Part shown: positions 8,764 to 15,202 of the stretch, piece by piece
Layout of the letters: every line of letters starts with the position of its first letter
How positions within the stretch are numbered: position 1 is the first letter of the stretch
Source of the DNA: a virus
Lineage: Duplodnaviria; Heunggongvirae; Uroviricota; Caudoviricetes
Length of the DNA stretch: 25,289 nucleotides
IMG/VR virus record: IMGVR_UViG_2698536647_000005
Strand: one strand, 5' to 3'
Made by a program: the position numbers and the translations under genes
The notes under the pieces: model-generated
What the model was told of the DNA's origin: nothing
The model's input: the letters and a program-made list of their open reading frames with translations, nothing else
Database searches by the model: none

Positions 8764-9618
8764 ATGAGCACTAAATTAACCGGTTACGTATGGGATGCAT
8801 GCGCTTCGTCAGGCATGAAGTTATCCAGCGTTGCCATCATGGCGCGTCTGGCAGACTTCAGCAGTGATGAAGGGGTTAGCTGGCCTTCCATCGCTACCAT
8901 CGCGCGCCAGATTGGTGCTGGTGAGAGCACGGTTCGTACAGCCATATCTCAGCTGGAAAAAGATGGTTGGTTAACCCGCCAGCAGCGCCGTAAAGGCAAC
9001 CGAAATGCATCGAACGTTTACCAGCTCAATGTTGCGAAATTGCAGGCTGCTGCCTTTTCTCACCTGTCAGATTCTGACGCATCAAAATCTGATGCCTCAA
9101 AAACAGACGCGTCAAAATCTGAGGCATCAAAAAACGATGAAAAAGGCGGTTTTCACCCGTCAGAATCTGGGGGGGATCCGTCAGTAAATACAACTACTGA
9201 TCCATCAGTTAAAAAACCTTCTTGTCCGGTTGCGCCGCAACCAGACCCTGAAGTGATGATCACCGATAACGCCATCCTAGTTCTGAATCATCTGAACCTG
9301 GTTAGTGGCTCACGATACCAAAAATCAAAAACTTCTCTGGAAAACATCCGTGCTCGTCTGCGTGAAGGTTACACCGTTAGCGACTTACAGCTGGTGATCG
9401 ACCTTAAGCATGAGCACTGGAACGGCAATGACGTGCAGTACCAGTACATGCGTCCTGAAACGCTCTTCGGTCCGAAAAAATTTGAAGGTTATCTGCAAAG
9501 CGGGATCCGCTGGGACAAGAAGGGGCGGCCACCGCGTGACAGCTGGGGTGAAAAGAAACATGACCCGATGAAGTTCGGTCCGGTTGATAGCAAGATTCCA
9601 GAGGGGTTCAGAGGATGA
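8764..9618 (+). CDS. Replication initiation protein (O-like; N-terminal helix-turn-helix, iteron-encoding linker, conserved phage C-terminal domain), 284 aa
   Basis: AAGGA ribosome-binding site. N-terminal helix-turn-helix (SWPSIATIARQIGAGESTVRTAISQLEKDGWL). The central linker is encoded by four tandem 15-bp repeats. The C-terminal region resembles the conserved C-terminus of phage replication proteins. Position is equivalent to lambda O. Confidence 0.7.
   Translation: MSTKLTGYVWDACASSGMKLSSVAIMARLADFSSDEGVSWPSIATIARQIGAGESTVRTAISQLEKDGWLTRQQRRKGNRNASNVYQLNVAKLQAAAFSHLSDSDASKSDASKTDASKSEASKNDEKGGFHPSESGGDPSVNTTTDPSVKKPSCPVAPQPDPEVMITDNAILVLNHLNLVSGSRYQKSKTSLENIRARLREGYTVSDLQLVIDLKHEHWNGNDVQYQYMRPETLFGPKKFEGYLQSGIRWDKKGRPPRDSWGEKKHDPMKFGPVDSKIPEGFRG
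9074..9133 (+). repeat. Four tandem 15-bp iteron-like repeats inside the replication gene, followed by an A-rich stretch: putative origin of replication
   Basis: Units CTGACGCATCAAAAT, CTGATGCCTCAAAAA, CAGACGCGTCAAAAT and CTGAGGCATCAAAAA, each with a dyad core of the form TGACGCGTCA. Followed by AAAAACGATGAAAAAGG. This mirrors the lambda arrangement of the origin inside gene O. Confidence 0.55.
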
Positions 9619-10946
9619 TGGAAAATAAATACTGCCGTGCACTGGCTGAACTCCGTTCAAAACCAGCACACGAGTTGAAAGAGGTCGGTGATCAATGGCG
9701 CACTCCGGATCTGTTGTTTTGGGGGATCAATGCGATGTTCGGCCCTCTGGTGTTGGACCTTTTTGCCGACGACAGCAACGCGAAGAGCCCAGCATGGTAC
9801 ACGGCTGAAGATAATGCCCTGACGCAGGATTGGTCAGAGCGGCTGGCAGAACTCGGTGGTGCCGGGTTTGGCAACCCGCCTTACAGCCGCTCTCAGTACC
9901 ACGACAAGCAGGCCGTTACCGGAATGACCCACATCATTAACCACGCTATGGCCATGCGAGAAAAGGGTGGTCGGTACGTTTTTCTCATTAAGTCTGCGAC
10001 GAGTGAAACGTGGTGGCCGGAAGAGGCAGATCACGTCACATTCATCCGTGGCCGAATTGGTTTCGATCTTCCTACATGGTTCGTGCCGAAAGACGAAAAG
10101 CAGCAGCCCACCAGCGCATTTTTTGCTGGCGCTATCGTGGTCTTCGACAAAACATGGCGGGGTGAGCGTTTCAGTTACATCAACCGCACCGACCTGGAGG
10201 CCAAAGGCCGTGCTGCGATGTCGCTGGCCCAATTTGCCGTGGGAAGAACGCAAACTGATGCGGCGCCAGAGCTGGACGCTGAGGTAGTGCCGAAGAAATC
10301 AGAGGCAGAACTGCCATTAACCCAAAAAGCCATTCTGGAAACCAGCGGTGTAGAGGCTTGGGCCTGTGTTGTCGCGGCGTTCGGCGAGAAAGACGAGTAC
10401 ACCTTCAGCGAGTCAAAGTTTGGTCATACCTGGGCTGCCGACTCTCTGGAAAACCCTGAATTTACCAATGTTTCACCGCTGACGATCGACAGAGCGAAAA
10501 AGCTGATCAGCGAGAGCATCCTGGTGGGTGTTAATGCATGGCTGGAAACATTGCCCTTTGATAGCGATGACGTGAAACAAGACATGTCAGAGCGGTTACG
10601 CACGGTTGCCGTTGAGTCTGCGAAAGAATACGGCATTAACCACAGTGAATTCATCGCGACCATGGAAAGCCTGGATAAAGCCAAATGGTCAAATATTCGG
10701 GGGATCCGCGCCCATGTCCGTGAGACGCAGGAATCAAAGGACAAGGCGTTAAACGAATCGCGCGTTTGGCCTCTTGAGGTTGGACTGGTGTTTAACCAGA
10801 TTGAAGGGGCTGACGCTCTACCTGTTTCGCAGCAGAACAAGCTGAAAGCCAACATCAATCAACTCTGGCTGGAACGAACGGCCACCAGCGAAATCATTAC
10901 TGCCGCTTCTGAACTTGTTCGCAATATGCGGGGAGAGGCCGCGTGA
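9615..10946 (+). CDS. Phage Dam-type N6-adenine DNA methyltransferase (N-terminal about 190 aa) fused to a roughly 250-aa domain of unknown function, 443 aa
   Basis: DQWRTP and LDLFAD motifs and the catalytic NPPY motif (GFGNPPYS) in the N-terminal half. Single uninterrupted ORF. ATGA overlap with the replication gene. The C-terminal half has no motif I recognise. Confidence 0.75.
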   Translation: MMENKYCRALAELRSKPAHELKEVGDQWRTPDLLFWGINAMFGPLVLDLFADDSNAKSPAWYTAEDNALTQDWSERLAELGGAGFGNPPYSRSQYHDKQAVTGMTHIINHAMAMREKGGRYVFLIKSATSETWWPEEADHVTFIRGRIGFDLPTWFVPKDEKQQPTSAFFAGAIVVFDKTWRGERFSYINRTDLEAKGRAAMSLAQFAVGRTQTDAAPELDAEVVPKKSEAELPLTQKAILETSGVEAWACVVAAFGEKDEYTFSESKFGHTWAADSLENPEFTNVSPLTIDRAKKLISESILVGVNAWLETLPFDSDDVKQDMSERLRTVAVESAKEYGINHSEFIATMESLDKAKWSNIRGIRAHVRETQESKDKALNESRVWPLEVGLVFNQIEGADALPVSQQNKLKANINQLWLERTATSEIITAASELVRNMRGEAA

Positions 10947-11329
10947 AACTGATCCTGCCTTTTCCTCCGAGCGTGAACACTTACTGGCGCGCCCCTAATA
11001 AGGGGCCGCTGGCCGGTCGTCACCTCATTAGCGCTGATGGTCGTAAATACCAGAGCGCTGCCTGCGTGGCGATCATTGAGCAATTACGACGTCTCCCGAA
11101 GCCATCGACTGAACTGGCAGCGGTTGAAATCACTCTGTACCCGCCGGATGCGCGCCGCCGGGATATCGATAATTACAACAAAGCCCTGTTTGACGCGCTG
11201 ACGCATGCGGGTGTCTGGGAAGACGACAGCCAGATTAAGCGCATGCTGGTGGAATGGGGACCCGTAGTGCCGAAAGGTCGGGTAGAGATAACGATCAGCA
11301 GATATGAACCGGCGGGTGCAGCCGCCTGA
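10943..11329 (+). CDS. rusA: RusA Holliday-junction resolvase, 128 aa
   Basis: GTG start overlapping the methyltransferase stop. LPFPPSVNTYW N-terminus and the acidic catalytic region RRDIDNYNKALFDAL ... DDSQI match the RusA family. Confidence 0.85.
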   Translation: MKLILPFPPSVNTYWRAPNKGPLAGRHLISADGRKYQSAACVAIIEQLRRLPKPSTELAAVEITLYPPDARRRDIDNYNKALFDALTHAGVWEDDSQIKRMLVEWGPVVPKGRVEITISRYEPAGAAA

Positions 11330-11342
11330 TATGGAGAAAAGT

Positions 11343-14232: not shown

Positions 14233-14254
14233 AGCCCCTTGCGGGGCTTTTTTA
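14233..14254 (+). terminator. Intrinsic terminator (tR'-like), possibly bidirectional
   Basis: Stem AGCCCC, loop TTGC, stem GGGGCT, then TTTTTT. Abuts the stop codon of the convergent minus-strand gene 14252-15202. Confidence 0.7.
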
Positions 14255-15202
14255 TGGCAGCGAGTTAACGAAAGAACTGAAAAGGGCCTTATCTTTATTG
14301 CTAATTGATTTTTTCAAATGTAGTTGATGATTTAAAGGTTTAAAGTTTTCCTTTGTGAGATATATACATGCTTTCTCAAAACGATCCTGAAGGAATTGAA
14401 ATCTTTCATTCAGCCTGGAAACTTTTAATCCTAATGACATGACCTTCTTCTCAGGAATATCGTCAGGATTGCAATTATTGAGTTCTTCCAGCACAAGGCG
14501 AATATCTCTTTCGAAGATTAGCGCTATGTTATAATCGTTGAGGAGGCATTCAGGATTACGAACAATGCCAATTACTTCGTCGATGAATTGTGGTTTTACA
14601 TTATCCTCAGCATTTTCATCTTCGTTATCGGAAGGTTTTTGAGACATAACATTCGACAACTGCATTTCTTCCTTGGTTTTCCTTCTGGGAAGTAAAACTT
14701 TTCCATCTCCTAAAGCAGCCATACGTTTCAAAGCTTGACTCCCGGCTCGGCCAACTACTTTAGAATCTCTTAAATCTAAAATTTTATGTGCGACCCATTC
14801 TAATGATGGTTCACTGGCTTCGATTTTGGCTTTTGCTTGGTAATGGAGAAAAATATTTTTCTTGGCTTCCTTGAGGGCTGTTAGATATCTGTGGAAATTT
14901 GCCTTTTTCTCGAGGTCAGTGGCTAGGTTTTCAAATGCTATACCGAAGACTTTTGTACCGCAAACGTGACCCAGGTTCGTCTCCAGACCATCCTCAGTAA
15001 GAACAAGAAACCCTTTTTTATGGCCTGTTCGACAGCTCGACTTGCCACACGGGATTTCTTCCGGGAGGTCATCATAATAACCAAAAACATCGGATAATTG
15101 TTGATCGGTCAGTTCCAGCCTGGAATGATAGCTTTCCCGAGCTTGAATTTCTGTCCAGTCATTAATGCGATCAAAGCTATTGCCGTTTTTAATAAAAATC
15201 AT
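14252..15202 (-). CDS. Orphan hypothetical protein, 316 aa, low GC, antisense to the late operon (cargo gene)
   Basis: Uninterrupted 951-nt ORF with an AAGGGA ribosome-binding site. Visibly more AT-rich than flanking phage DNA (my estimate; not computed). Opposite orientation to all neighbours. Contains a C-x4-C ... H ... H-x-C cluster but no motif I recognise. Confidence 0.6.
   Translation of the reverse strand: MIFIKNGNSFDRINDWTEIQARESYHSRLELTDQQLSDVFGYYDDLPEEIPCGKSSCRTGHKKGFLVLTEDGLETNLGHVCGTKVFGIAFENLATDLEKKANFHRYLTALKEAKKNIFLHYQAKAKIEASEPSLEWVAHKILDLRDSKVVGRAGSQALKRMAALGDGKVLLPRRKTKEEMQLSNVMSQKPSDNEDENAEDNVKPQFIDEVIGIVRNPECLLNDYNIALIFERDIRLVLEELNNCNPDDIPEKKVMSLGLKVSRLNERFQFLQDRFEKACIYLTKENFKPLNHQLHLKKSISNKDKALFSSFVNSLP

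Follow-up and report, generated by a model that had tools for sequence, protein, structure and literature searches.

A phage Dam-type adenine methyltransferase with two separable C-terminal modules encoded behind the replication initiator of a lambdoid prophage

We analysed a 25,289-bp stretch of viral DNA (Caudoviricetes; IMG/VR record IMGVR_UViG_2698536647_000005), here called the window, and in particular an open reading frame (ORF) of 443 amino acids (aa) that starts with ATG at 9615 and ends at 10946. It joins a phage DNA adenine methyltransferase (Dam) to a long C-terminal extension; this feature and those below lie on the plus strand unless stated otherwise. The window is a lambdoid enterobacterial prophage with the gene order integrase, exonuclease, Ead/Ea22, RdgC, ClpX-zinc-finger protein, CI-like repressor, Cro-like, YmfL/CII-like, DUF4222, replication initiator, the Dam gene, RusA, Ant, DUF968, Q, lysis genes, terminase and portal. 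The gene is preceded by an O-like replication initiator (8764–9618) with an N-terminal winged helix-turn-helix (HTH; HTH_36 / DnaD_N-like) and a C-terminal Phg_2220_C domain, and is followed by a RusA Holliday-junction resolvase (10943–11329; PF05866, E = 4.3e-16). Both junctions are overlaps, the first in agreement with the coupling to the initiator described in an initial annotation made from the sequence: the ATGA at 9615–9618 joins the Dam ATG to the initiator TGA, and the GTGA at 10943–10946 joins the Dam TGA to the GTG start of rusA. A pR-like promoter lies upstream of the Dam gene at 7491–7520 and, because it is followed by no convincing terminator, we place the Dam gene in the early rightward operon. 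The protein is identical to RefSeq WP_077816020.1 (26 contigs) and is already annotated there as 'phage N-6-adenine-methyltransferase'; new here is that its unannotated half resolves into two mobile modules, together with the contexts in which these occur.

By sequence, the N-terminal part of the protein belongs to the T1/HP1-type phage N6-adenine methyltransferase family (PF05869 / TIGR01712); the initial annotation had recognised a phage Dam from a signature that includes NPPY. The catalytic domain (residues 16–199, 9660–10211) exceeds the curated cut-offs of both models. The Pfam Dam model PF05869 matches residues 19–199 over profile positions 3–167 of 169 (E = 4.5e-42, 144 bits against a cut-off of 28.1), and TIGR01712 (phage_N6A_met) scores 199 bits against a cut-off of 97.05. 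Motif IV, NPPY, occupies residues 87–90 (9873–9884) and DQWRTP residues 26–31, and both are invariant across 23 homologues (alignment A1). The Dam of phage T1 (237 aa) is 28% identical (E = 1e-9), with the window NPPY aligned to T1 NPPYSR. The ratio of non-synonymous to synonymous substitution rates (dN/dS) of the domain, measured against the homologue in the Nissle 1917 prophage, is 0.037. A methylome study called M.EcoT1Dam GATC-specific and described a prophage relative whose GATC methylation is accompanied by off-target activity (PMC4996451). With M.EcoT1Dam and M.Btr190III as the characterised relatives, the window enzyme probably methylates adenine N6 at a GATC-like target. Some RefSeq or Pharokka-style records label genes of this family 'phosphoadenosine phosphosulfate (PAPS) reductase', for example ST64B sb44 (L003, 4295–5188) and Flotzy (L033, 5913–7247). 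We rejected this identity: PHROG 33262, from which the label seems to have been carried over, is a PAPS-reductase-Dam fusion family that matches the Dam part alone. As a practical point, the label is wrong in several phage records.

The extension (~240 aa, residues ~200–443) consists of a hypervariable linker and two separable modules, which we call mid and tail. In the initial annotation it was seen as about 250 uninterrupted residues without a known motif, forming one unknown domain. The lack of a known motif stands: residues 200–443 have no Pfam match even at E ≤ 10, no NCBIfam match and no significant sequence or profile match in the PDB, and mid and tail match nothing in PADLOC or NCBIfam besides models that describe the Dam+tail architecture. 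A full-length structural model gave no match in BFVD, and none in the PDB with Foldseek; the alignment behind this model was shallow and left the Dam part of low quality (predicted local distance difference test, pLDDT, 57.6). No description of the extension was found in the literature on PF05869, the T1/HP1 Dams, orphan phage methyltransferases or Nissle prophage 3.

The single-domain view, in contrast, was rejected because the modules occur apart. In alignment A1 many relatives of ~292 aa consist of Dam and the last ~64 residues, and one consists of Dam and mid without tail. When the C-terminal 248 aa were searched exhaustively against 1.84 billion cluster representatives with phmmer, 45 matches came back in two non-overlapping sets, indicating that the extension families are small. 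In a 5.8-billion-protein index, a profile query and a query from a ParB-like protein carrying mid each matched few fragments. Mid and tail are unrelated to each other (hhalign probability <1%). The initial annotation had suggested checking whether the two halves of the protein are separate genes in relatives; a free-standing tail gene and a standalone mid protein (P0127) exist. The ORF is not a pair of genes joined by a sequencing frameshift, one of the two refutations named in the initial annotation. The architecture recurs at 437–448 aa in Escherichia, Citrobacter, Salmonella, Klebsiella, Erwinia and Enterobacter, and the extension is under purifying selection (dN/dS against the Nissle 1917 homologue of 0.051, 0.24 and 0.18 for the mid-A and mid-B parts of mid and for tail), so we rejected an artefact. 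The linker (residues 200–232, 10212–10310) has a pLDDT <50 and varies in length and sequence in A1; it is 52% identical in aa to the Nissle homologue, and residues 206–232 are hypervariable. Mid and tail each represent a small domain family missing from current libraries.

The mid module (~residues 233–379) is acidic and all-helical and has two parts. Mid-A (residues 233–282, 10311–10460; pLDDT ~89) is modelled as three helices with a small beta bridge and carries the motifs WAC..AAFG.K.EYTF.ESKF(G/A)HTWAADS. Mid-B (residues 283–379, 10461–10751) is helical and ends in a W.NIR..R motif. Each occurs apart from the other: mid-A is common to ParB-like proteins and to Dam-midA-X proteins, and mid-B is also found alone in the small proteins P0142 and P0166. 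The mid module of the window protein has an isoelectric point of 4.9 and a net charge of −8 over 148 aa, and the isoelectric point is 4.4–5.0 in almost all members, which argues for protein binding rather than DNA binding.

Outside the Dam proteins, mid forms the C-terminal domain in ParB-like proteins, behind a ParB N-domain and HTH_ParB (P0122, P0125, P0128, P0129 and gp48 of Pantoea phage AH07). We discarded apparent second matches of the mid profile in the ParB HTH region, whose scores were negative, and no sequence or fold similarity was detected between mid and known C-terminal domains of ParB. Mid is carried in 23/25 IMG/VR ParB-like loci examined; a query with P0125 returned no viral loci. 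The ParB-like gene lies just behind a window-type initiator in every locus with upstream sequence (23/25), sometimes with a PerC-like gene between them, and the same initiator type stands directly upstream of the Dam gene in 78/80 IMG/VR Dam-mid loci. Downstream of the ParB-like genes we found DpdA, an archaeosine tRNA-guanine transglycosylase-like protein, in six loci and in AH07 itself, and elsewhere RusA, other methyltransferases and assorted accessory genes. The direct succession of ParB-like (mid) gene and DpdA is seen in Pantoea-type phages (L004, 5125–7199; L005, L006, L007, L022, L023 and L026) and suggests that the two proteins may act as a pair in 7-deazaguanine DNA modification, encoded in the slot after the initiator. 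DpdA and DpdB have been described (PMC10164549). What relatives carry in this slot are genes for DNA modification (Dam, ParB-like alone or together with DpdA, other methyltransferases) and not loaders. Mid is most likely a protein-protein module, for self-association or partner docking, and neither a catalytic nor a DNA-recognition element, because of its charge and because it is seated where ParB proteins normally carry their dimerisation domain.

The tail module (residues 380–443, 10752–10943) is modelled as three helices (pLDDT 83–91), and its invariant residues are W-P-x-E-V, L and L-E (alignment A4). It is a free-standing gene of ~85 aa in the Klebsiella phages ST13-OXA48phi12.4 and 5 LV-2017, which carry their own DnaC or lambda-P-like loader. 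We surveyed one genome per species, giving 47 loci from >20 enterobacterial genera. In 41/47 a homologue of the large C5-cytosine methyltransferase that comes after Dam-mid-tail in Escherichia coli CX21 begins −3 to +12 nt from the end of the tail ORF, and in 36/47 a lambda-P-like or DnaC-like gene lies ≤5 kb upstream of tail. Tail is fused to a small DPPH-motif methyltransferase in eight of the 47 loci, overlaps a DPPY N6/N4 methyltransferase in L073 and follows an NPPF-motif protein in L086. PF05869 Dam, the DPPH-motif enzyme and the DPPY N6/N4 enzyme make three unrelated upstream methyltransferase families to which tail is fused or which it overlaps. Because of the conserved pairing with the C5 methyltransferase and the repeated fusion to three unrelated adenine methyltransferase families, tail most likely acts with methyltransferases as an adaptor or regulator. 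The recurrence of the gene pair across genera, with the repeated fusions, hints, in the Rosetta-stone sense, at a complex of several methyltransferases or at a regulator. The Citrobacter murliniae prophage L073 offers an overlapping chain (3802–7273) of DPPY N6/N4 methyltransferase, 90-aa tail protein and large C5 methyltransferase, and carries its own DnaB-type helicase.

The same C5 methyltransferase is the commonest neighbour of the three-part gene. Of 80 loci, 43 have the C5 methyltransferase directly after Dam-mid-tail, 26 have RusA there and five have Ant. CX21 has the C5 methyltransferase at this place and not rusA, and in CX21, Flotzy and Eeyore the two genes overlap, constituting an m6A + m5C cassette. 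The window gene differs from CX21 by a single mismatch (9786) up to nt 10852 and then diverges, and the mismatch map places a joint inside tail, with ST64B-like sequence beyond it (10853–10946). The window from 10755 to 11339 is 83% identical in nt to the tail-end and rusA block of ST64B. The end of the CX21 match at 10852 and the match to ST64B tail and rusA show that a recombination inside tail swapped the C5 methyltransferase for rusA. The 90%-identity cluster that holds the window protein has 1680 members, and its representative is a 645-aa C5-cytosine methyltransferase without similarity to the window protein. Fused or read-through members joining Dam-mid-tail to the C5 methyltransferase presumably bridge this cluster. 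An in-frame junction of tail and methyltransferase is seen in fragment P0143.

Several known systems share parts of this arrangement. The T1/HP1 orphan Dams (PF05869, TIGR01712) correspond to the N-terminal 200 aa, which match full-length, show both DxWxTP and NPPY and can be aligned with the T1 enzyme; T1 Dam ends at 237 aa without an extension, whereas the window protein has ~240 further residues in two modules. Proteins of the ST64B Sb44 / LLS gp45 type (~292–297 aa; PADLOC MTase_II PDLC03332, PHROG 111) have the same Dam, the tail and the same position after the initiator region, but lack the ~150-aa mid that sits between Dam and tail in the window protein. The ParB-like proteins of Pantoea/Erwinia-type lambdoid phages, such as AH07 gp48, have mid at ~40% identity as their C-terminal domain and occupy the same slot after the same initiator family, but their N-terminus is a ParB/Srx domain with HTH_ParB instead of Dam, and they have no tail. 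Phage P1 Dmt is a combined adenine and cytosine methyltransferase type. The cassette in CX21, Flotzy and Eeyore resembles it in pairing adenine with cytosine methylation; it differs in that the CX21-type relatives have two separate genes joined by tail, and the window has rusA in place of the C5 methyltransferase. With lambda P and DnaC the only likeness is the gene position right after the initiator.

We favour, with moderate confidence, a mosaic three-part orphan DNA adenine methyltransferase of the phage that is expressed from the early operon for self-protection and carries accessory interaction modules. On this account a complete T1/HP1-type Dam would be made from the early rightward operon in translational coupling with the replication initiator, and after induction or infection would methylate phage DNA during its replication. 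Methylation may then shield progeny genomes from restriction, keeping up with rapid replication. Mid would provide self-association or docking to a partner protein. Tail has its home form in the small free-standing protein translationally coupled to the large prophage C5-cytosine methyltransferase, and has been fused repeatedly to whichever adenine methyltransferase lay upstream; in the window, recombination inside tail exchanged the C5 methyltransferase for rusA.

Some points weigh against this account. The predicted activity and specificity of the methyltransferase rest on relatives, and T1 Dam is just 28% identical. The analysis shows family membership, modularity, gene neighbourhoods, selection and dispensability for replication, whereas the roles proposed for mid and tail are read from context, self-association of mid from its position where ParB proteins usually carry the dimerisation domain. 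That mid is constantly linked to one initiator family may stem from common ancestry and not from function. Tail is kept under selection without an adjacent C5 methyltransferase in the window, Nissle, ST64B and LLS; it therefore has another role too, or is a slowly decaying relic.

The gene lies in the slot of lambda P, from which the initial annotation proposed that the extension could be a replication-recruitment or anti-restriction domain; read as a helicase loader, it would replace lambda P or DnaC or recruit DnaB. The observation in the initial annotation that the window has no P or DnaC gene holds (no match when ORFs of the early region were scanned with Pfam, or when three lambda-P-like proteins and a DnaC protein were used as tblastn queries), but a loader role drawn from the position is not supported. 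Escherichia phage LLS, which was isolated on K-12 and whose cohesive (cos) ends have been mapped, has a window-type initiator (89% nt identity) followed by Dam and tail; the mid profile search found mid absent from LLS and ST64B, and no loader is annotated anywhere in LLS. Pantoea phage AH07 carries mid on its ParB-like protein and has no P and no DnaC, and the tail profile search found tail absent from AH07-type loci. Because this initiator type works in phages without P, DnaC and either one module, neither module substitutes for a helicase loader, and each is dispensable for replication. The modules also coexist with genuine loaders: contig L037 has a Phg_2220_C initiator with a true Phage_lambda_P gene behind it and a Dam-midA protein two genes further on, and tail stands beside lambda-P-like or DnaC-like genes in the 36/47 genomes mentioned above. 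Neither lambda P (PF06992) nor DnaC matches the extension in Pfam at E ≤ 10, hhalign gives a probability <1% for mid and tail against lambda-P-like proteins and against the initiator, and fold comparison of the modules found no similarity to solved helicase loaders, lambda P or the initiator. Apart from its appealing position, nothing in the gene resembles a loader, and this reading, largely refuted, is the least probable of those considered. Helicase recruitment may instead be accounted for by the DnaD-type resemblance of the initiator, to judge from its DnaD_N and PHROG matches. The tempting positional argument is thus corrected: the slot behind the DnaD-like initiator is a DNA-modification hotspot, and there is no loader gene in these lambdoid phages (window, LLS, AH07).

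The main rival to the favoured account is docking coupled to replication, in which the DNA-modifying protein of the slot, whether Dam or a ParB-like protein (alone or with DpdA), is anchored by mid to the replisome or the Phg_2220_C-type initiator at the phage origin, so that nascent DNA is modified as it is made. The position of mid directly behind one initiator family in ~100 loci with its N-terminal partner swapped between Dam and ParB-like, the distant Dam-midA protein of L037 that also follows a Phg_2220_C initiator, the translational coupling of the gene to the initiator, and the acidic, hence protein-binding-like, character of mid are all consistent with it. We nevertheless consider it unlikely, as common descent of one phage group can account for the linkage, different initiator parts are replaced in different loci so that no single segment is constant, LLS works with the same initiator without mid, hhalign shows no relation of mid to the initiator, and P0127, which is mid on its own, is located in an unrelated island. 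The remaining readings are less likely still. That the extension sets the sequence specificity or processivity of Dam, as a target-recognition or DNA-binding domain, could be argued from its attachment to DNA enzymes (Dam, ParB-like, other methyltransferases) and from the helix-rich core of mid-A with its highly conserved polar residues. It is made improbable by a Pfam Dam model that is complete without the extension, by the many family members of ~170–240 aa (T1 Dam among them), by modules that occur separately and on non-methyltransferase proteins, and by the acidity of mid; the extension shows no similarity to known recognition domains or HTH families, and the other refutation named in the initial annotation does not apply either. 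An anti-defence decoy, in which acidic mid inhibits a host restriction or defence protein as a second protective activity beside the methylase, would suit the net negative charge of nearly all mid members and a slot that holds anti-restriction-type DNA-modification genes. We regard it as very improbable: the charge is modest (net −8, as given above), there is no match to PADLOC or known anti-restriction folds, and nothing ties mid to a particular defence system.

A broader version of docking takes in both modules, which would act as adaptors that build a DNA-modification machine at the replication fork: mid would anchor the slot enzyme, Dam or a ParB-like protein paired with DpdA, to the replisome or the Phg_2220_C-type initiator and tail would bridge the adenine and C5-cytosine methyltransferases, giving a replication-coupled two-base self-marking. 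We put this forward as speculation whose chances are low. Should the modules turn out to be targeting adaptors, they would reveal a way in which epigenetic self-protection is tied to replication in phages.

The replication initiator matches Phg_2220_C (E = 4.7e-23), HTH_36 (1.9e-9) and DnaD_N (2.8e-5) in Pfam, as well as TIGR02220, and in PHROGs the families 'primosomal protein', 'replication initiation O-like' and 'DnaD-like helicase loader'. Inside its gene, Tandem Repeats Finder identified four tandem 15-bp repeats at 9073–9132 (no strand assigned; period 15, 4 copies, 77% matches) with the consensus TCTGACGCATCAAAA, which encode a DASKSDASK... stretch of the initiator. The direct-repeat family D1 covers these repeats, and the inverted repeat I1 spans 9068–9169 around them. 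By analogy with the lambda ori inside O, the repeats are probably iterons of the phage origin. Initiators with differing N-terminal and central parts share a C-terminal IPxGFRG motif, as in the window (9595–9615), AH07 gp45 (L004), Sb42 of ST64B (L003) and the phi12.4 rep protein (L030). This end is kept with or without a DnaC gene downstream and may be a conserved contact site.

Elsewhere in the window, two minus-strand ORFs have no Pfam match, at 2221–3000 (259 aa) and 14252–15202 (316 aa). The latter is flanked by Q and the lysis genes in a stretch of low GC content (0.40–0.44), the usual place of a moron or defence gene. Where the window has this unannotated ORF past Q, its relatives have a further DNA methyltransferase gene of ~350 aa: CX21 (L001, 12285–13293), Nissle 1917 (L002, 11165–11320) and LLS (L032, 10289–11341). 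Some such phages therefore carry up to three methyltransferases.

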